Virus record (IMG/VR): IMGVR_UViG_3300048693_000367
Location: 32,001-96,000 of that record
Length of the DNA stretch: 64,000 nucleotides
Reading direction: 5' to 3' (one strand)
From: a virus
Taxonomy: Duplodnaviria; Caudoviricetes
Shown: positions 2,032 through 37,035 of the stretch, piece after piece
Layout: each line of letters opens with the position of its first letter
Position numbering within the stretch: the first letter of the stretch is position 1
Translations under genes and position numbers: made by a program
The notes under the pieces: model-generated
What the model saw: the letters and a program-made list of their open reading frames with translations, nothing else
Database searches by the model: none
Told to the model about the DNA's origin: nothing

Positions 2032-3132
2032 ATGCAAAAAATAATTAATGAAACCAAATTAGACTTTAATGATGTATTGATCGTTCCACAAAGATCAACA
2101 TTAACTAGCAGATCACAAATAAATCTTAATAGATTATTTTATTTTTATCATTCTCCTAGGGTGTGGACAGGCGTCCCTATAATTTGTGCTAATATGAGTT
2201 TTTGTTCTTTTAAAATAGCCAAAGCCTTAGCGAGTCATAAAATGATAGCTTGCTTGCATAAATATCATTCAATAGATCAACTATCTAATTATTTTATAGA
2301 AAATATCAAAAATTTAGATTATACTTTTGTGTCTATTGGATATAAAAAAAGCGACTTAACACATCTATTACAATTTAAAGATAAAACAGGCATACAGCCG
2401 AATATTTGTATAGATGTACCAAATGGACACATGGATGCTTTTGTCAAATATTGTAAAAGGGTTAGGGATAATTTTCCAGAAAGTATTATTATTGCTGGAA
2501 ATGTTACCAACACCTCATCTACTCAAGAGCTGATTATTTATGGTGGCGTAGATATTGTAAAGTGCGGAATAGGTGGAGGTTCTGCGTGTACAACTCGTTT
2601 TCTTACCGGATGTGGTCTGCCTCAATTATCTTGCTGTTTAGAAAATGCTTATGTCGCACACGGTCTTCAAAATGGAAATAAAAAACTTGGTTTAATGTGC
2701 TCAGACGGAGGACACAAAACTGTTGGTGATGTTTGTAAGGCTATATGTGCGGGTGCGGATTTTGTTATGCTTGGTGGCTATTTCGCAGGTGTTGATGAAA
2801 GTGAAGGAGAGTGGGAATTTGGAGGAGACTATTCTAAAATATTAGGATCAAATGAAAAAACCAAAGGTAGATTCACATACTACGGTATGAGCAGCCACCA
2901 TGCTCAAGAAACTTATGAAGATAATATCAAGAACTACAGAGCTTCTGAAGGAACCAAAATTACTGTTCCATATAAGGGAAGTTTAGATGTTATGGTTCAA
3001 GAGCTATTGGGCGGTATAAGGTCATGCTGCTGCTATATAGGATCAGACTGTATAAAAAATATGAGTAAATGTGGACAGTTTTGTAAAGTTAATCAAATCC
3101 ATTCCAACAAAAATCCAATTTTTGGTGTATAA
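2032..3132 (+). CDS. guaC: GMP reductase
   Basis: LDFNDVLIVP, IDVPNGH, AGNV, GIGGGSACTTR, SDGG, GADFVMLGG, YYGMSS and YRASEG motifs; no CBS domains. Start moved to ATG 2032. Confidence 0.85.
   Translation: MQKIINETKLDFNDVLIVPQRSTLTSRSQINLNRLFYFYHSPRVWTGVPIICANMSFCSFKIAKALASHKMIACLHKYHSIDQLSNYFIENIKNLDYTFVSIGYKKSDLTHLLQFKDKTGIQPNICIDVPNGHMDAFVKYCKRVRDNFPESIIIAGNVTNTSSTQELIIYGGVDIVKCGIGGGSACTTRFLTGCGLPQLSCCLENAYVAHGLQNGNKKLGLMCSDGGHKTVGDVCKAICAGADFVMLGGYFAGVDESEGEWEFGGDYSKILGSNEKTKGRFTYYGMSSHHAQETYEDNIKNYRASEGTKITVPYKGSLDVMVQELLGGIRSCCCYIGSDCIKNMSKCGQFCKVNQIHSNKNPIFGV
3124..3131 (+). promoter_or_regulatory. GGTGTATA motif (putative phage late promoter); copies also at 5531, 11816, 12848 and 29724, variants at 32916 and on the - strand near 2003
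   Basis: Recurs 8-40 nt upstream of start codons at gene boundaries. Confidence 0.6.
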
Positions 3133-3155
3133 ACTATATAAGGAGAAAAAACCTT

Positions 3156-3854
3156 ATGAGGCGTACCATACCTCCAATTGATAAAAAATATAGTCACTAT
3201 ACAGTCATATCTGAATGTTATTTGATTGATAAAACATGGTATGTCGATGTTCAGTGCAAGTGTGGAAAAATAAAAAAACAACCAACAAGTAGTCTAAAAA
3301 GACTCAGCCAATGTAAAAAATGTAATGCCATAGAAAAATATAGAAAATATAAAACTGGAGATAAAAAACATAATTTAACTGTTATTGATTATTTAGATAG
3401 TTGTGGCAATTCTCATAGTCAAATCAAAGTAAAATGCGACTGTGGTAATACCAGTAATATATCAACATATCATTTTGGTAAAACAAAAATGTGCAAAAAA
3501 TGCTTTTTATCTAAAAATGGAATAAACCATCCGTCGTATAAAGGAACAAAAAATATAACAAAAACATATTTTTCTCAAATAAAATTGAATGCAAAAAAAA
3601 GAAATTTAAGTTTTAATCTTACTATAAATGATTTAGATAAAGTATTAAAAAAGCAAAATTTTTACTGTTATTTAAGTGGTCAGATAATTGGAGTACACAA
3701 TAAAACAGCTTCTTTAGATAGAATAGATTCTACTAAAGGATATACAAAAGATAATATAGCATGGATACACAAAGATATTCAACGTATGAAAAGCGATTTT
3801 AATTTAGATTACTTTATTGAGATATGTAAAAAAATTACCTCCCACAACTCCTAA
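3156..3854 (+). CDS. Free-standing HNH-like homing endonuclease (SLDRIDS..GY family)
   Basis: Two CxCG..CxxC repeats and C-terminal CYLSG...ASLDRIDSTKGYTKDNIAWIHKDIQRMK; SD AAGGAG. Confidence 0.8.
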   Translation: MRRTIPPIDKKYSHYTVISECYLIDKTWYVDVQCKCGKIKKQPTSSLKRLSQCKKCNAIEKYRKYKTGDKKHNLTVIDYLDSCGNSHSQIKVKCDCGNTSNISTYHFGKTKMCKKCFLSKNGINHPSYKGTKNITKTYFSQIKLNAKKRNLSFNLTINDLDKVLKKQNFYCYLSGQIIGVHNKTASLDRIDSTKGYTKDNIAWIHKDIQRMKSDFNLDYFIEICKKITSHNS

Positions 3855-29757: not shown

Positions 29758-30276
29758 ATGCAAAAACTCTATGATATATCTAAAGAATATTTAGAAGAAC
29801 ATTATATAAAACAGCAAAAAAGCGCACAACAAATTTGCAACGAACTAAATATTAAATCCAAAACCGTTATCTTAAGACTCCTTAAAAAATATAATATTCC
29901 TTCCAATAGTCAATTCGGCAAACCCAACAAAAACACTAAAAAATTTGGAGATATTCATCAGTCTTATATTTGTACTTTACGACTCAGAGCAAAAAATAAA
30001 AAAATTGACTTTAATTTAGATGGGGACTATTTATGGAAATTATTTTTAAAACAAAAACGTAAATGCGCATTGTCTGGTTTATTATTAGTATTCCCAAAAG
30101 CGTGGGGAATTAAATCAAAAACCAATATCACAGCATCTTTAGACAGAATTGACTCTAAACTTGGCTATGTTAAAGGTAATGTTCAATGGGTACACAAAAC
30201 AATTAACACAATGAAAATGAACATGAGCGATAATGAATTTATTTACTTTTGTAAAAAGGTTGCTGACTATTCATGA
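29758..30276 (+). CDS. Free-standing HNH-like homing endonuclease (SLDRIDS..GY family) with N-terminal HTH
   Basis: KCALSG, ASLDRIDSKLGYVKGNVQWVHKTINTMK. Confidence 0.8.
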   Translation: MQKLYDISKEYLEEHYIKQQKSAQQICNELNIKSKTVILRLLKKYNIPSNSQFGKPNKNTKKFGDIHQSYICTLRLRAKNKKIDFNLDGDYLWKLFLKQKRKCALSGLLLVFPKAWGIKSKTNITASLDRIDSKLGYVKGNVQWVHKTINTMKMNMSDNEFIYFCKKVADYS

Positions 30277-31316
30277 TTATAACCTATCTAAGGAGTTCAA
30301 GTTATGGAACTCATTCTTTTTGTCCAATGCAATATTTTATTGAATATAATTTGGGCATTAGATCTCCCTCAAATAAAAAAGCCGATAAAGGCACTATTTG
30401 TCATAAGGTATTAGAAATTTTAGCTCATATTAAATTATGCACCCAGAATAATCAAAGTATTTATATTGACGATATTATTGGCGATGTTGATATAAATAAG
30501 TATAATTTGACCCATATCATCGAGCAGGTTTACAAATACTATACTGCTCAGTTTAAACACCACGAATGGACGGCCAAAGACTATAAAGACTGCCTCCTAT
30601 GGGTAAATAAAGCAATCACAGACCACAATGGTAACTTTGATCCACGCAACAGAGACATACTACAACCAGAACAACATTTTGATATCGTGATCAATAAGCC
30701 TTGGGCTTATTATAAATATAAAACTAAAACTGAAGATTTAGAAGGTCATTTAGCCATAAAAGGAACAATTGATCTTATTACTAAAGTAAATGATGATACA
30801 ATAGAAATTATAGACTGGAAAACTGGTCGTAGATTAGATTGGGCAACCGGAGAGGAAAAAACTCTCGCCAAGTTGCAAAATGATCCACAATTAAGAATTT
30901 ATCATTATGCTGTTAGCGCATTGTATCCAAATATATCACATATAATTTTTACAATCAATTTTATAAATGATGGTGGGGCTTTCAGTGTTTGTTATGACAA
31001 ATCGGATTTGCCTAAAACAGAAGATATGATTAGGCAAAAGTTCGAAACCATAAAAAGCACCAAAGTTCCTCAGTTGAATAAAAGCTGGAAGTGCAATAAG
31101 CTATGTCATTTTGGAAAAACAACTTTTGAAAATACCCATGTTCTGCCGATACTAGAATATAGAGATGGACAATTATGTAAAGTTGATACGCATATGACCA
31201 AGTGTGAACAGCTTAAGCACGATATCGAACTAAAAGGTATGGATGTGGTGGTTGACGAATACACTTTTCCAGGTTATAGTATTGGTGCCTACAAGGCCCC
31301 AGGATCTGCTGAATAG
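30273..31316 (+). CDS. PD-(D/E)XK RecB/AddB/Cas4-like exonuclease
   Basis: CPMQY, GTICHKVLE, PEQHF, KGTIDL, IIDWKTG, QLRIY and a C-terminal Cys cluster. Confidence 0.8.
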   Translation: MIITYLRSSSYGTHSFCPMQYFIEYNLGIRSPSNKKADKGTICHKVLEILAHIKLCTQNNQSIYIDDIIGDVDINKYNLTHIIEQVYKYYTAQFKHHEWTAKDYKDCLLWVNKAITDHNGNFDPRNRDILQPEQHFDIVINKPWAYYKYKTKTEDLEGHLAIKGTIDLITKVNDDTIEIIDWKTGRRLDWATGEEKTLAKLQNDPQLRIYHYAVSALYPNISHIIFTINFINDGGAFSVCYDKSDLPKTEDMIRQKFETIKSTKVPQLNKSWKCNKLCHFGKTTFENTHVLPILEYRDGQLCKVDTHMTKCEQLKHDIELKGMDVVVDEYTFPGYSIGAYKAPGSAE

Positions 31317-31464
31317 AATTGATAGTTCAAAAGGATACATCCAAAGCAATGTTTGGTGGGTCAAAAAAGATATCAATAAAATGAAACTAGACTTTCCTTT
31401 GCATACGTTTATTGCATTATGTGAAAAGGTCGTAGCCAACAAGGAGAAAATTGGATGGACATGA
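31312..31464 (+). pseudogene. C-terminal remnant of an SLDRIDS..GY-family homing endonuclease
   Basis: NRIDSSKGYIQSNVWWVKKDINKMK..F...FIALCEKV matches the C-termini of 3156, 5560 and 29758. No N-terminal part. Its stop overlaps the dnaE ATG. Confidence 0.75.
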
Positions 31465-32892
31465 GCAATTATATACCGCTTCATGTCCATTCCTAAGTGG
31501 GCCATGTTCTCACTTCTGGATGGACTCTCAAAACCTGAGCAAATTGCAGAGCGTTGTAAAGAGATAGGTGCAAAAGCATGTGCGCTAACTGATCACGGTA
31601 ATATTGCCGGAGCAGTTAAGTTTTATTCGGCCATGAAAAGCGCCGGTGTGAAACCTATTCTTGGTTGCGAACTATATATATGTGATCAAGACCCAACCAT
31701 AAAAGAAAAAGATAACAAAAATCTTAGTCATTTTATAGTGTTGGCCAAAAACTATAATGGATGGAAAGATCTAATTAAGATTGTTTCTGAATCTAATAAG
31801 CCAGAACACTATTATCATAAGCCAAGATTAGATCTTAAAACTATACAATCTTTGAATCGTGGTAATCTTATTGCTGTTACCGGGCATTTAGGATCAACAT
31901 TAGCAGATATTATTCTGGATAATTATAGTCTCAAATCTGATTGGTTGGAATTGGGCAAACAGCATATCTCAACATTAAAGGATATTTTTGGAGATTTTGT
32001 ATTTCTAGAAGCCCAACTAATGGACAAAGACAATCTGCTTGTACAAAATATACTAACAGACGCTATTAGACAGTTGGGGAAAATTACAAACACTAAGGTT
32101 ATTTGCACTCCTGATGCTCACTATTGTCGTAGAGAGGACGCTATTGATCAAAGAATTCTTCTGTGTAATAATCTTAAAATAACATTTCCTGATATTAGTC
32201 GTAAGATTAGTAATGATGAAGACATTCCAATGGGATGTTTTTTCACTTCGGATAATTATCATATTCCATCACAAGAAGAGATGAAAGAGTGGCATACAAA
32301 AGAAGAAATAGAAAATACTAATTTTGTATCAGACTTAATAGAAGAATATGATATACTTAGCAAACCAAAGCTACCACCCTTTGATTGTCCTAATAATTTA
32401 TCTCAAGATGAATATCTCAGAGAATTATGTAGAAAGGGCTGGAAAGATAAGATAGCTAATGTTATACCACAAGATCAGCAACAGCAATATATAGATCGTA
32501 TCAAAAACGAACTAGATGTTTTACAGGGTGCTGGGTTGAGTAGTTATTTTCTAATAGTACAAGACATTGTTAATTATGTTAGAAAAAACGTATGGCTTCC
32601 GGGACCAGGTAGAGGATGTTTTTTACCAGACTCTAGAGTTTTAACTCCAAGTGGTGAACTCATACCTATTGTTAATATGAATATTGGTGATGAAGTTATC
32701 GATGCTTATGGTAATAAGCAAAAAATAACTAATACTTTTCAATACGAGGTCGAAGAAGAAATACTACAATTAGAGCTAGAGAACGGCAAGATTATAAGAT
32801 GCACCAAAGACCATAAATTCTTGACCAAGAATAGAGGGTGGGTAGAAGCGCAATATCTCACAGAACTAGATGATTTGGTTGAAGTTAAATAA
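31461..32892 (+). CDS. dnaE: DNA polymerase III alpha, part 1 (PHP domain) fused to split-intein N half; frame interrupted at 31494-31503
   Basis: MSNYIPLHVHS* (31461-31496), then MFSLLDG, TDHG, GCE, DAHY, ELDVL...SYFLIV.D and GPGRG|CF in the +1 frame. Confidence 0.85.
32617..32892 (+). mobile_element. Split intein N-fragment (91 aa)
   Basis: CFLPDSRVLT...IRCTKDHKFLT..GWVEAQYL..DDLVEVK* (blocks A and B), then a stop. Confidence 0.9.
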
Positions 32893-32942
32893 AAAGAACC
32901 CCGACCAAGACTTTTGGTGTAATCTAGACCAGGAGAATAAAG

Positions 32943-33737
32943 ATGAAATACATTACACAACAATATCTAATCGACAATAATTACTCGACCAAAGGTATAT
33001 CAAATATCTCTTTTAAGGGAAAATGTCAAAAATGTAAAAACAATTTTAAATATTCTAGTTTGAAAAAATTTCTACAAAATAGAAAAGATTTATCTAAAGA
33101 CCAATGGATGTTATGTCAAAAATGTTTTTTGCGATTAAAAACCGCGGATAATCCTGTATGGTTAGAAAAAAATAGACAAGCACAGATTATTGCTCAAAAT
33201 AAACCAGAACAAATACAAAAAAATAAAATAGGAGTTTCCAACTCTTGGTCAAAAGAACGCAAAGCCAAAGCGTCTGAACATCTTAAAAAAAGATGGAATA
33301 ACGATGAACAGTTTAAAAATATCGCTCTACAAAATCTACAGCATAATCCGGATAATTTTATCAAAGGAATAGGTTCTGGTGGCTTAAAAGGAATATACAG
33401 TAATATACCATATCATAGCGCGTTAGAGCTATCTTTTATATTGTGGTGCGAATCAAAAAATATATCTATTAAAAGATACGATCTTGATCCAATAGAATAT
33501 TTAGATGAAAATAAGAACATTAGACAATACTATCCAGACTTCATAATTAACAAAACAACTATAGTAGAAATAAAAGGTAAAGGAATATGGTATCAAAAAA
33601 ATTACGAAAGAAATATATGTAAAATACAAGAAGCAAAAAAACAGTCAAAAAATTATTGCGTATATTATGACATTGATGAACAGACTAAATTATTTTATAA
33701 GAAGGCAAGGAGACTGCATCGTGAGAATCAAAAATAA
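32943..33737 (+). CDS. Free-standing endonuclease (TnsA-N-like PD-(D/E)XK) between the split-intein halves
   Basis: CxxC..CxxC, NUMOD-like basic helices, YHSALE..F, YYPDFII..IVEIKG; SD AGGAG. Confidence 0.75.
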   Translation: MKYITQQYLIDNNYSTKGISNISFKGKCQKCKNNFKYSSLKKFLQNRKDLSKDQWMLCQKCFLRLKTADNPVWLEKNRQAQIIAQNKPEQIQKNKIGVSNSWSKERKAKASEHLKKRWNNDEQFKNIALQNLQHNPDNFIKGIGSGGLKGIYSNIPYHSALELSFILWCESKNISIKRYDLDPIEYLDENKNIRQYYPDFIINKTTIVEIKGKGIWYQKNYERNICKIQEAKKQSKNYCVYYDIDEQTKLFYKKARRLHRENQK

Positions 33738-34572
33738 GAAAATTATTCAATACAAAGGATATGTTCATGATTTATCTGTTCAAAATTCAAAAACATATAA
33801 TATCGAAGGAATAGCGGTTCATAATAGTGCGGCAGGTTGTCTAGTATCATATCTTATTGGTATCACCAGCATAGATCCAATTAAGTATAATCTATTGTTT
33901 CAGAGGTTTTACAACGAAGGAAGAAATACTAAAGACCATATATCCATGCCAGATATTGATGTGGACGTACCGATCAACAAAAGAGAATTAATCATACAAT
34001 ATATTAAGGATAAATATGGTTATGATAAAGTTTCTCAGATGGTAACGTTTAATACCATCAAAGGACGAGGAGCACTAAAAGACGTATTAAGAGTATATGG
34101 TAATATTAGTTTTGAAGAAATGAATACTATCACTAAAAATATACCGGACGAGGCCAAAATTGCGGACGAATTGCAAGAAATGAAAGAAGAAACTGGAGAA
34201 GCATCTATCATAAGATGGGCATTAGAAAATAATGCTGAAAAACTCAAGGATTGGTGTTATATTGACGATAATGGAGAATTGCAGGGGCCTTTGGCAAAAA
34301 GGTTCGAGCAGGCTATTAGATTAGAGGGTACAAAATCCAATCAGTCAAAACACGCAGCCGGTATTGCTATCAGTTCAGAGCCACTAGGAGATTTATGTCC
34401 CATGGTTTACGATAGTAAAAACGAACAACTTATTGCTGGCATGGAGATGCAAGACTTAGAAAATATTGGCATTATCAAGTTCGATATTCTCGGAGTTGCA
34501 ATGTTGGATAAAGTTATGACTATTACAGACCTATTAAAACAAGGAGTAAAAAATGAGCCAAGTACAATTTAA
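33721..34572 (+). CDS. dnaE: Split-intein C half (35 aa) fused to DNA polymerase III alpha, part 2 (palm)
   Basis: SD AGGAG and GTG start; RIKNKKIIQYKGYVHDLSV..TYNIEGIAVHN|SAAGCLVSYLIGITSIDP, MPDIDVD, SKHAAG and KFDILG motifs. Confidence 0.9.
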   Translation: MRIKNKKIIQYKGYVHDLSVQNSKTYNIEGIAVHNSAAGCLVSYLIGITSIDPIKYNLLFQRFYNEGRNTKDHISMPDIDVDVPINKRELIIQYIKDKYGYDKVSQMVTFNTIKGRGALKDVLRVYGNISFEEMNTITKNIPDEAKIADELQEMKEETGEASIIRWALENNAEKLKDWCYIDDNGELQGPLAKRFEQAIRLEGTKSNQSKHAAGIAISSEPLGDLCPMVYDSKNEQLIAGMEMQDLENIGIIKFDILGVAMLDKVMTITDLLKQGVKNEPSTI

Positions 34573-34744
34573 AGATGTTGGTGAAAATACAACGTTTAAA
34601 TCAAATGGTATAGAATACAAAAAGATACCTATGGTTAAAATTAGTTGCTGTCGATCAATAAACGCTGAACAGGTCGACAATCCTGCTCAAAGAACATTCG
34701 TTCCACCAAACACAGAGGTTGAAGTTAATGATCAACAACAATAA
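34553..34744 (+). CDS. Small hypothetical protein
   Basis: SD AAGGAG; 63 aa; overlaps both neighbours. Confidence 0.55.
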   Translation: MSQVQFKDVGENTTFKSNGIEYKKIPMVKISCCRSINAEQVDNPAQRTFVPPNTEVEVNDQQQ

Positions 34745-35426
34745 GATTTGTGTTTTTGATTTTGAGACCGATGGTTCTGATCCGCGATCATGTAGTCCGG
34801 TACAAATTGCTGCTTTAATTATTGACCCTATTAATCTAGAGATCGTAGAAGGATCCGAACTTAATGTGTTTTTTAAACCAGAAGTTTTGGAAAACAATGA
34901 TAATTATACATATGAAACAGATATCCTAGACTTTCATTCCAAAGTAAAAGGATGTTCTAAAGACGATGTTTTAAAGTCCTGGTATAATTATCCAAAACAA
35001 GATCATTCTTGGAAAATGTTTGTTAATTATTTAGATAAATATCATTCTAGAAGTTCTAAAAAGAGTCAGTTTAGTGCTCCTATTGCTGCTGGCTATAATA
35101 TCAACAGATTCGATCTGCATATCGTTGACAGACTAAGCAATAAATATGGTAATCTGAATAAAGAACAAAGAACAAACTTATTCTATCCTAGAGATGTTAT
35201 AGATGCTATGAATTTAGTATTTTATTGGTTTGAACACAACAACGAACTAAAAAGTTACACACTAGATAGTCTAAGAGAATATTTTGGCATATCAAAAGAT
35301 GGTGGTCATGATGCTCTAAAAGACGTTAAAGATACAGCCGCAATTATTATTAGATTTCTAAAATTACACAGAAGCTTGGGACAAAAAGTTAAATTTAAAA
35401 ATTCATTTATAGACAATAATGACTAA
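34728..35426 (+). CDS. DEDDh 3'-5' exonuclease (DnaQ/epsilon-like)
   Basis: VFDFETDG, GYNINRFD and HDALKDV motifs. Confidence 0.85.
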   Translation: MINNNKICVFDFETDGSDPRSCSPVQIAALIIDPINLEIVEGSELNVFFKPEVLENNDNYTYETDILDFHSKVKGCSKDDVLKSWYNYPKQDHSWKMFVNYLDKYHSRSSKKSQFSAPIAAGYNINRFDLHIVDRLSNKYGNLNKEQRTNLFYPRDVIDAMNLVFYWFEHNNELKSYTLDSLREYFGISKDGGHDALKDVKDTAAIIIRFLKLHRSLGQKVKFKNSFIDNND

Positions 35427-37035
35427 AACATATCAGTATTCTTGCGGATGTAGTTTCAATTTGATTAATAATAGTTTAGATCAAGGAGTTATTTTTGATC
35501 CTACTATTGAAAATATTAATCTGGATTGTCAACGAACATGGAATTTGATTTCTGATGGAAATACTAAAGGGTGTTTTCAGTTGGAGTCTCGTCTTGGACG
35601 ATCTATGGCTAAAAAACTAAAGCCAGAAAATATAGAACAGCTTTCTGCTTTAATAGCCATTTTAAGACCAGGAACCTTAGAGGCTATGAGAGATGGAAAA
35701 AGTGTTACTAATCATTATATAGATAAAAAAAATGGTCTAGAATCGGTAGATTATTTTCATCCATCATTAGAACCCATATTAAACAATACATATGGTGAAA
35801 TGGTTTATCAAGAACAGGCTATGGAAATTACAAAGGTAGTAGCGGGGTTTAATTTGCAAGAAGCAGATATGTTAAGAAAAGCCATCGGCAAAAAGAAGCC
35901 CGAAGAAATGGCTAAGGTTAAAAGTAAGTTTTTAGAAGGTGCTAAAAGATTAGGCATAGTTTCACTAGATGAGGCAGAACAAATCTTCGGTTGGATTGAA
36001 AAAAGTCAAAGATATTCATTTAATAAGTCTCATAGTGTTAGCTATGCGATAAATGCGTACCTATCAGCGTATGCTAAGGCACACTTTCCAAGAATATTTT
36101 TTGCATCATATTTAAGGTTTGCCAAAGATAAAATAGATCCTCAAGCAGAAATTAAAGAACTAGTACAAAATGCCAATGAAATGGATGTACTAGTCAAAAC
36201 CCCCGATCTGCGTAATATGAATGAATTCTTTGTATTAAAAAACAATAGTATATACTTTGGTTTAACGGATATTAAAGGTGTTGGCAAATCAGTTTTTGAT
36301 AAGTTGACCAATATATCTAGTACTATAGATCTAAATAAAATAAGTTGGTTGGAATTATTATTTAAAATTCTAAACAATATCAACTCAACTGCTGCTAAAG
36401 CCTTGATCCAGAGTGGGGCGACCAACTTTATTAACAAAACTAGAAATAGTATGCTTTTTGAATATAATCTAATTAGTGGATTAACAAAAAAAGAAATAGA
36501 GCATATCGTTAATAACTTAAATAGTTTCGATACTTTGCAACAATCGTTAGAATATCTGCTAACATTACCAAAGATTAATAAAAATCGTAAAAAAAATATA
36601 GAGGATACGATATATTCGTTGATGAATCCGCCGTATTCATTAGAAGATACTGCCGAATGGCTGGCAGATTCTGAGGATACACTATTAGGCTGTTCGATTA
36701 CATGCTCTAAGCTTGATATGTATGATATTAGTATGACAAACATAACATGCAAAGAACTTAAAACCACACTATCCAAAGACAACCTAATTTTAGGTGGAGA
36801 AATTGATTTTATAAATATTACAAAAACCAAAACCGGTAAAACTAAAGGGGCAGAAATGGCTTTTGTTACCATGACCGACAGCACCGGTACAATAGATTCT
36901 ATTGTCTTTTTTCCCGAAAAGTATAAAGAATATAAAAATCTACTATTTCAAGGAAATATTATTATCGTAAAGGGTGGAAAGTCAAAAAATGGCGATGGAC
37001 TAATTGTAGAAAAAGCATATGTGGCCCGTACTTGA
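35419..37035 (+). CDS. dnaE: DNA polymerase III alpha, part 3 (fingers, HhH, OB fold)
   Basis: GNTKGCFQLES, ILRPG, TYGEMVYQEQ, ADMLRKAIGKK, YSFNKSHSVSY, GLTDIKGVG and MAFVTMTD motifs. Confidence 0.9.
   Translation: MTKTYQYSCGCSFNLINNSLDQGVIFDPTIENINLDCQRTWNLISDGNTKGCFQLESRLGRSMAKKLKPENIEQLSALIAILRPGTLEAMRDGKSVTNHYIDKKNGLESVDYFHPSLEPILNNTYGEMVYQEQAMEITKVVAGFNLQEADMLRKAIGKKKPEEMAKVKSKFLEGAKRLGIVSLDEAEQIFGWIEKSQRYSFNKSHSVSYAINAYLSAYAKAHFPRIFFASYLRFAKDKIDPQAEIKELVQNANEMDVLVKTPDLRNMNEFFVLKNNSIYFGLTDIKGVGKSVFDKLTNISSTIDLNKISWLELLFKILNNINSTAAKALIQSGATNFINKTRNSMLFEYNLISGLTKKEIEHIVNNLNSFDTLQQSLEYLLTLPKINKNRKKNIEDTIYSLMNPPYSLEDTAEWLADSEDTLLGCSITCSKLDMYDISMTNITCKELKTTLSKDNLILGGEIDFINITKTKTGKTKGAEMAFVTMTDSTGTIDSIVFFPEKYKEYKNLLFQGNIIIVKGGKSKNGDGLIVEKAYVART

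Follow-up and report, generated by a model that had tools for sequence, protein, structure and literature searches.

A candidate ribosomal bypass cassette in a phage dnaE gene: a stop-first coding gap beside a decayed homing endonuclease

How could a phage make a single DnaE chain when a stop codon and a change of reading frame stand inside the codons for the PHP metal-binding motif? The question is raised by a 64,000-nucleotide stretch of DNA (hereafter the window; positions 32,001 to 96,000 of IMGVR_UViG_3300048693_000367), which is part of a 122-kb uncultured virus record in IMG/VR whose metagenome sources are freshwater and lake (11 studies). The first piece of its dnaE gene reads ATG (31461) AGC AAT TAT ATA CCG CTT CAT GTC CAT TCC and is then closed by TAA (31494-31496); 10 nt on, in the +1 frame, ATG (31504) TTC TCA CTT CTG GAT GGA encodes the MFSLLDG of the DnaE PHP motif. 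Deletion of 31494-31503 (TAAGTGGGCC) in silico restored L-H-V-H-S-M-F-S-L-L-D-G, and the joined parts, HVHS-MFSLLDG, are collinear with uninterrupted relatives. An earlier sequence-only reading of this DNA, which had pointed out the stop-containing insert, began the short open reading frame (ORF) at ATG 31461. Its frame and stop were right, but a second in-frame ATG lies at 31455, and because the Shine-Dalgarno (SD) sequence AAGGAG (31441-31446) sits 8 nt before that codon, the mini-ORF is more likely MDMSNYIPLHVHS, starting at 31455. The parts of the interrupted gene are as follows.

31455..31493, + strand: first dnaE coding segment MDMSNYIPLHVHS, with the PHP His-x-His motif (conservation over 51 haplotypes)
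31491..31493, + strand: proposed take-off codon UCC (Ser) (TCY, then stop, in 47/47 haplotypes)
31494..31503, + strand: coding gap TAAGTGGGCC (homologous gaps are 8-12 nt); GCC at 31501-31503 is the proposed near-cognate landing triplet
31504..32616, + strand: second dnaE coding segment, MFSLLDG..., with the PHP domain and the start of the palm, to GPGRG (Pfam PHP, E 2e-32; Taq DnaE alignment)

Recurrence of the gap and selection on its flanks

The long ORF after the gap is without precisely the His-x-His strand, which the mini-ORF encodes. When it was aligned to Taq DnaE (2HPI), the F of MFSLLDG corresponded to F16, and the TDH, E, H and DxH ligand positions were present, showing that the remaining PHP metal ligands are intact, as had been read from the sequence. 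This segment holds the sole PHP match of the 122-kb record; PolA and PolB were searched for in the record and not found, and DnaE is the only polymerase detected there. Contigs from three runs on different samples showed no differences over 31052-32000. Because these contigs are identical, and because about 80 loci from dozens of samples are interrupted at the same codon boundary, the 10-nt insert is not an assembly error.

Loci for comparison are cited by L numbers; those with a gap were compiled from one genome scan and three pattern scans, which left free the Val codon (scan 1), the gap length and downstream strand (scan 2) or the upstream strand (scan 3). Among the 41 closest viral loci, 39 carry an uninterrupted M-N-Y-I-P-L-H-x-H-S-x-F-S-L-L-D-G directly 3' of a PD-(D/E)XK nuclease gene, and in the other two (L036, L037) the identical codon boundary is occupied by a different 10-nt insert, likewise stop-first. 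The scans combined gave 81 gap-bearing phage loci, representing 47 haplotypes, all of them stop-first at this boundary, with gaps of 8 nt (3 haplotypes), 9 nt (10), 10 nt (13), 11 nt (19) and 12 nt (2). The first gap codon after TCY is TAA in 26 haplotypes, TAG in 20 and TGA in 1; a ribosome at take-off would have a stop codon in its A site, as in gene 60-type bypassing, in 47 of the 47. When a loose pattern was used, 25 of its 28 matches were dnaE 5' ends, and therefore chance cannot explain the recurrence. Wherever the locus sequence is long enough, the gap is followed by an intact ORF of ~610 aa, the normal size of the first dnaE gene in the family. Sister lineages differ in gap length, for example 11 nt in L101 and 12 nt in L110. 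The relatives thus bear out two things that the sequence-only reading had named as worth looking for, since the insertion recurs (81 loci, 47 haplotypes) and co-occurs with endonuclease DNA upstream. Against cultured phages, blastn of 31200-32900 gave no match and tblastn identity was <=35%, so that there is no cultured relative for comparison.

Gap alleles were also seen in more distant dnaE lineages of an H-C-H-S type (L165, L166, L168, L175-L186), which have other upstream neighbours (a methyltransferase, or unknown genes) and in some cases TGA as first gap codon; the element thus extends beyond the phage group to which the window belongs. One further gap allele (L174:1285-1323, TAAGTGAACT) is on an 8-kb contig binned with a Chitinophagia metagenome-assembled genome, the sole host hint, and binning of phage contigs is unreliable.

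Codon usage on the two sides of the gap indicates that both are parts of a protein. Among 51 haplotypes, no amino-acid change was seen in the upstream Y, P, L, H, V, H and S, which are written with 2 synonymous codons for Pro, 5 for Leu and 2 for His, while the five codons nearer the start of the mini-ORF vary freely in amino acid. Downstream, the residues of [HM]-[YF]-S-L-L-D-G-L-S are kept and their synonymous sites are variable. Since amino acids are kept while synonymous sites vary, both flanks are translated. The two parts also correspond to one collinear protein, as in bypassing, and these flanks also occur, rarely, without a gap (L169, L170, L171).

A homing endonuclease upstream of the gap

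Three features lie just before or over the start of the mini-ORF in the window.

30273..31316, + strand: PD-(D/E)XK nuclease gene, the conserved upstream neighbour (Pfam PDDEXK_1, E 1e-19)
31309..31464, + strand: decayed HNH-like homing endonuclease, a 3' stump of 51 codons (phrog_3322 endonuclease, E 4e-10; phrog_3118 HNH, E 3e-6)
31441..31446, + strand: Shine-Dalgarno sequence AAGGAG, inside the endonuclease stump; the AAGGAGA...ATGG[AG]C tail is also found in gap-bearing loci

In gap-free relatives the nuclease gene runs into dnaE, with its stop overlapping the dnaE start, and in 20 of 31 uninterrupted loci the Pro codon lies 11 nt from this stop. Extra DNA, 24 to ~1,090 nt in length, is present upstream in all of the 75 gap loci screened. 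In the window it contains the endonuclease stump, which has no start codon, is joined at its 5' end out of frame to the end of the nuclease gene, and aligns to residues 23-79 of an 80-aa C-terminal domain. A homing endonuclease remnant ending on ATG 31461 had been proposed from the sequence, and the phrog_3322 match and the stop TGA (31462-31464), which overlaps that ATG, agree with it. Full-length homologues of ~240 aa occupy the same position in L103 (4134-4850, - strand), L058, L050, L080, L113, L134 and L075, and the whole gene encodes a helix-turn-helix region, Cys pairs and an HNH-like domain. A complete C-terminal domain is retained in 12 screened gap loci, with the whole gene in several and stumps in two; most other gap loci retain only the tail that gives the mini-ORF its SD and start codon. 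The 3' end of the endonuclease ORF overlaps the mini-ORF out of frame. The full-length L103 protein belongs with HNH-type enzymes by its matches to phrog_3322 endonuclease (6e-20) and phrog_374 HNH endonuclease (2.5e-18); no Pfam model scored above threshold for the endonuclease, and its motif is DRID, not DH.

A gene of this endonuclease family between the nuclease gene and dnaE is confined to gap alleles and to L011/L012, and its carriers interleave on a DnaE tree (a quick IQ-TREE run), the sporadic distribution of a free-standing homing endonuclease. Gap-bearing and gap-free genes interleave on the same tree, where well-supported branches force at least 4 changes, yet both serine positions are TCN in all gap alleles and often AGY in uninterrupted ones. 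Therefore the short tract round the gap has its own ancestry, as would be expected for a cassette that spreads by homing and co-conversion. That the endonuclease and the gap form a cassette is, on these sequence comparisons, a well supported proposal.

Rare gapless dnaE alleles with cassette-type flanks (GTCCATTCT...TTGGATGGAC) were found at L169:396-424, L171:5244-5272 and L170:2126-2154, of which L169 and L171 have the long cassette-style N-terminus MGAKLNY as well; these alleles could be natural endonuclease targets or precise revertants. L011 and L012 (L012:2732-2974) have an 80-aa C-terminal fragment of the same endonuclease family before an uninterrupted dnaE, with no gap, and in L006 an unrelated 192-aa HNH-type ORF lies ~600 nt before an uninterrupted dnaE. 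Endonuclease genes appear to have a hotspot at the dnaE 5' end.

Proposed decoding of the gap

Taken together, we regard the locus as probably a mobile cassette of endonuclease and coding gap, whose gap the ribosome crosses by hopping from UCY to the last gap triplet. The cassette would comprise three parts. The first would be a free-standing HNH-like homing endonuclease gene, in the window decayed to the 51-codon stump; the second, a replacement dnaE 5' end, would overlap the 3' end of that gene and supply the SD, the start codon and MDxxxY[IV]PLHVHS; the third would be a stop-first gap of 8-12 nt that separates the His-x-His-Ser codons of the PHP motif from its x-[FY]-S-L-L-D-G codons. The ribosome would stall with peptidyl-tRNA-Ser on UCY and the stop in the A site; the tRNA would then unpair, the mRNA would slide by 8-12 nt, and the tRNA would re-pair at the last gap triplet (UCN in most alleles, GCC in the window), so that decoding would resume at ATG 31504 and give a single DnaE chain. 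By analogy with T4 mobA and gene 60, the gap would split the endonuclease target in the conserved PHP-coding sequence and so protect the genome that carries it. The sequence-only reading had linked a recoded gap to the decayed homing endonuclease, and this link is supported by the recurrence, the endonuclease association, the selection on both flanks and the intact downstream ORFs.

A hop predicts a Ser-like triplet at the end of the gap. The last triplet is UCN (UCU, UCC or UCA) in 33 of the 47 haplotypes, ACU in 8, GCY in 5 (the window included) and UUU in 1; every non-UCN triplet is one base from UCU or UCC, and the take-off codon is UCC in all 8 haplotypes of the ACU type. Some near-cognate last triplets look like single-base deletions of U, as where GGGTCT in L103 corresponds to GGGCT in L056, the mini-ORF being common to both. 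No tRNA genes were found in the window. Two other routes were rejected: landing on the downstream Ser (the S of x-Y-S), because both codons that would be skipped are kept as H/M and Y/F with synonymous change, and a hop from CAU to the post-gap CAY, because two residues would be lost and because it is impossible in ATG-type alleles. Gap sequences often resemble the complement of the 16S rRNA 3' end (UAAGGAGGUGAUC): the gap of L054 (L054:5145-5186) holds AGGUGAUC, and others have GGUGA or AGUGA, possibly an internal SD-like element comparable to the mini-SD of gene 60.

Gaps of 8-12 nt span all three frames, and in 14 of 47 haplotypes the resume frame has a stop within the gap. After the preceding stop, the resume frame of most 11-nt haplotypes offers no ATG, GTG or TTG, and the same is true of several haplotypes with gaps of 8, 9 or 10 nt; in L054 the sequence is TCC TAG G TGA TCT CAC, without a start codon. 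These relations bear first on the possibility that there is no recoding at all, the mini-ORF being a leader or relic and DnaE starting after the gap (at Met 31504 here) and functioning without its His-x-His strand. The first post-gap codon is indeed ATG in the window and in 13 of 51 haplotypes, and an in-frame GTG often lies inside the gap in the 8-, 9- and 12-nt classes. Such a restart is nevertheless unlikely, as no start precedes H-Y-S-L-L-D-G in most 11-nt haplotypes or in L054, L051, L046, L107, L160 and L113, and as the Y-x-P-L-H-V-H-S of the mini-ORF is conserved as protein with synonymous change. In addition, the remaining PHP ligands are retained, and the ATG is ancestral, standing for the M of uninterrupted MFSLLDG alleles, and was not made by the cassette.

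Still less likely, in our view, is that each length class has its own recoding event, with a +1 shift at UCC_UAA for 10 nt (giving HVHS-KWA-MF here), -1/+2 shifts for 8 and 11 nt, and readthrough for 9 and 12 nt. The +1 frame of the window is open through the gap (AAG TGG GCC), and the resume frame is open across the gap in 33 of 47 haplotypes; but three mechanisms would be required for one homologous element whose gap length differs even between sister lineages, TGA is present in the +1 frame of two 10-nt haplotypes (L048/L050/L062 and L054), and the extra residues would differ between alleles (KWA, RES, RWA). The +1 programmed frameshift of prfB (RF2) depends on an unvarying +1 geometry with an SD placed 3 nt upstream. 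Like it, the dnaE site adjoins an in-frame stop, but unlike it, the dnaE gaps occur in all three frames, the +1 frame is closed by a stop in some alleles, an SD at 3 nt upstream is lacking, and re-pairing from UCC to CCU is poor. Because all three frames are represented and resume-frame stops lie within the gap, a single +1 frameshift is not the common mechanism. Of the three decoding options named from the sequence (hopping, a +1 frameshift at UCC_UAA, RNA excision), hopping is thus favoured and the +1 shift disfavoured as a general solution. As restart, frameshift and pseudogene are all argued against, frame-independent skipping remains, by a ribosomal hop or by RNA removal; a need for frame-independent decoding is well supported by the alleles compared.

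Two RNA structures were predicted at the gap.

31482..31506, + strand: local hairpin CAUGUCCAUU / CCUA / AGUGGG(C)CAUG, with the take-off codon and stop at the tip (RNAfold)
31485..31492, + strand: 5' helix strand GUCCAUUC (covering the Val and His codons and bases 1-2 of the take-off codon; RNAalifold)
31518..31525, + strand: 3' helix strand GGAUGGAC, in codons L-D-G-L (synonymous sites frozen in gap alleles)

RNAalifold pairs GUCCAUUC with GGAUGGAC in 50 of 50 and in 39 of 39 sequences, bridging the gap, and 7-8 of the 8 pairs can form in gap alleles vs 3-6 in uninterrupted alleles. The third-position entropy of the L-D-G codons is 0, 0 and 0.36 in gap alleles vs 1.33, 0.56 and 1.41 in uninterrupted ones, whereas in the four codons nearer the gap the third positions of gap alleles vary; since these four vary freely, co-conversion alone was rejected as the cause of the frozen YTG GAT GGA codons. 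In 11 divergent H-C-H-S gap alleles the U of a U-A pair is replaced by G, and its partner, the Gly third base, is C in 5, U in 3, A in 2 and G in 1, whereas in GUC-type alleles the partner is A in 47 of 50 sequences. This association between G and its partner has a Fisher p of 6e-7, uncorrected for relatedness; when uninterrupted H-C-H-S alleles are the reference, the difference does not reach significance (p 0.18). The helix is likely to be real and to act at the RNA level, because G.U pairs occur. The hairpin with TCC and the stop at its tip, described in the sequence-only reading, does fold (-8.2 kcal/mol, or -6.8 for the core alone), but it is strong only in the window's own lineage. We consider the conserved 8-bp helix and the local take-off hairpin of some lineages to be candidate stimulators of the hop.

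If the helix served RNA-level removal instead, the 8-12 nt would be excised from the mRNA as a micro-intron, with GUCCAUUC/GGAUGGAC holding the parts for cleavage and religation by host enzymes. Such removal would be frame-independent, and the helix is specific to gap alleles, tolerates replacement of U-A by G-C or G.U, and closes a loop containing the gap. We nonetheless find it very doubtful, as no mechanism for a 10-nt excision is known in bacteria or phages, the excision boundaries would be asymmetric (1 nt and 14 nt from the helix), and the stop-first gap and Ser-like last triplet are predicted by a hop, not by splicing. No Rfam family, self-splicing introns included, matched 31000-32000 at E<=1, and a search of the record for RtcB and RNA ligases found none; the group-I-like argument for excision made from the sequence is therefore without support. 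An RNA micro-intron, if true, would be mRNA processing of a kind not known in bacteria or phages. That the gap is an assembly artefact or the dnaE a dying pseudogene is hardly credible, even with this gene also interrupted by a split intein and divided into several genes, given the identical independent assemblies, the 81 loci with ~610-aa ORFs intact wherever the sequence suffices, the codon-periodic conservation and the status of DnaE as the only polymerase found in the record.

Several points weigh against a ribosomal hop, and the main weakness for the window itself is the landing site: Ser-like last triplets fit the prediction imperfectly, being only near-cognate (ACU, GCY, UUU) in 14 of 47 haplotypes, and the GCC of the window is not cognate to tRNA-Ser. 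The window has an ATG straight after the gap and an open +1 frame, so that its sequence alone allows a restart or a +1 shift. No one take-off hairpin is shared by every allele, since the window type folds at -6.8 to -8.2 kcal/mol and other gap types at 0 to -3.7 kcal/mol, some being without structure. The helix and a ribosome on the take-off codon are mutually exclusive, so its role in a hop cannot be explained, and it would suit an RNA-level process equally well; moreover, the invariance of GTCCATTC at gap lengths other than 10 nt comes partly from the search pattern, and a relaxed scan gave four other 5' strands. Short unassisted hops are described as low-efficiency events in the introduction of bioRxiv 10.1101/2022.08.31.505936. 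Among runs with the locus only DNA runs and no RNA runs were listed, and the one metatranscriptome of the same study gave nothing there.

Known bypassing systems and further breaks in the gene

The closest parallel is T4 gene 60, where a 50-nt translational bypass goes together with a mobA homing endonuclease cassette, with topoisomerase (Topo2L) homologues (Bonocora et al. 2011, as presented by Manning & Atkins, bioRxiv 10.1101/2022.08.31.505936). In both, the take-off codon is immediately followed by a stop, the gap interrupts a conserved metal-binding motif of an essential replication enzyme, and an upstream free-standing HNH-type endonuclease ORF overlaps the new N-terminal piece out of frame; in both, the endonuclease decays progressively while the gap is kept, and the distribution is sporadic. 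The differences are also clear. The target is the dnaE PHP domain here and the topoisomerase Toprim domain there, and the gap is 8-12 nt, varying by single bases, instead of 20-50 nt. Take-off is only 13-15 codons from the start, and therefore no long nascent-peptide signal is possible. About 30% of the dnaE haplotypes have a landing triplet that is only near-cognate, and a gap-bridging helix takes the place of a universal take-off stem-loop. When the L103 endonuclease was compared by tblastn with T4 2961-3790 (the mobA/60.1 region), the best E was 0.06, giving no sign of MobA homology; as judged from sequence, the dnaE cassette is an analogue, not a member, of the T4 MobA/gene 60 element.

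In E. coli, Weiss et al. 1987 and O'Connor et al. 1989 (both as cited in bioRxiv 10.1101/2022.08.31.505936) described tRNAs that hop a short way past a stop or slow codon at low efficiency. The hop distance is similar, and there too the peptidyl-tRNA re-pairs at a similar codon independently of frame, but those hops are unprogrammed or synthetic, whereas the dnaE gap occurs naturally in an essential gene and is conserved. Outside T4, natural coding gaps include the candidate bypassing in terminase genes of Streptomyces phage phiHau3 (PMC10732093) and, in mitochondria of Magnusiomyces, the byp elements (Lang et al. 2014, as cited in PMC10732093). They differ from the dnaE gaps in having a rare UUA codon instead of a stop, or inserts of 27-55 nt, in lacking an endonuclease link, and in their unrelated genes and hosts. 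No published account of a dnaE coding gap turned up in our literature searches.

To our knowledge, efficient programmed bypassing in phages is essentially one natural lineage, T4 gene 60 with its topoisomerase homologues. If the dnaE gap is indeed hopped, it would be a second lineage, without detectable sequence kinship to the first and with another essential gene and another endonuclease, and a coding gap as self-immunity of a homing endonuclease would be a general strategy to invade conserved coding sequence, not a curiosity. It would also provide dozens of natural variants for dissecting how the ribosome chooses a landing site, with gaps of 8-12 nt, cognate or near-cognate landing triplets, presence or absence of a take-off hairpin, and a gap-bridging helix. 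As for annotation, gap-bearing dnaE genes are presently labelled truncated or split.

The gap is not the only break in this gene. At 32617-33825 a split intein also interrupts the first dnaE gene: an N-intein (CFLPDS...VEVK, then stop) terminates ORF1 of the dnaE region, a free-standing endonuclease-like ORF follows at 32943-33737 (phrog_945, 3e-5), and a C-intein (...IAVHN, followed by SAAGCLVSY) opens ORF3, where relatives have a continuous GPGRG-SAAGCLVSY. This looks like a 'fractured gene' arrangement requiring protein trans-splicing. Pol III alpha is divided again after the palm, at 34572-37035, where a DEDDh exonuclease gene (34719-35426; phrog_192 polymerase exonuclease subunit, 9e-23) is followed by a gene for the fingers, HHH and OB parts (35419-37035). 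Since the first dnaE ORFs of relatives too end at ~610 aa, this post-palm split is a family trait.

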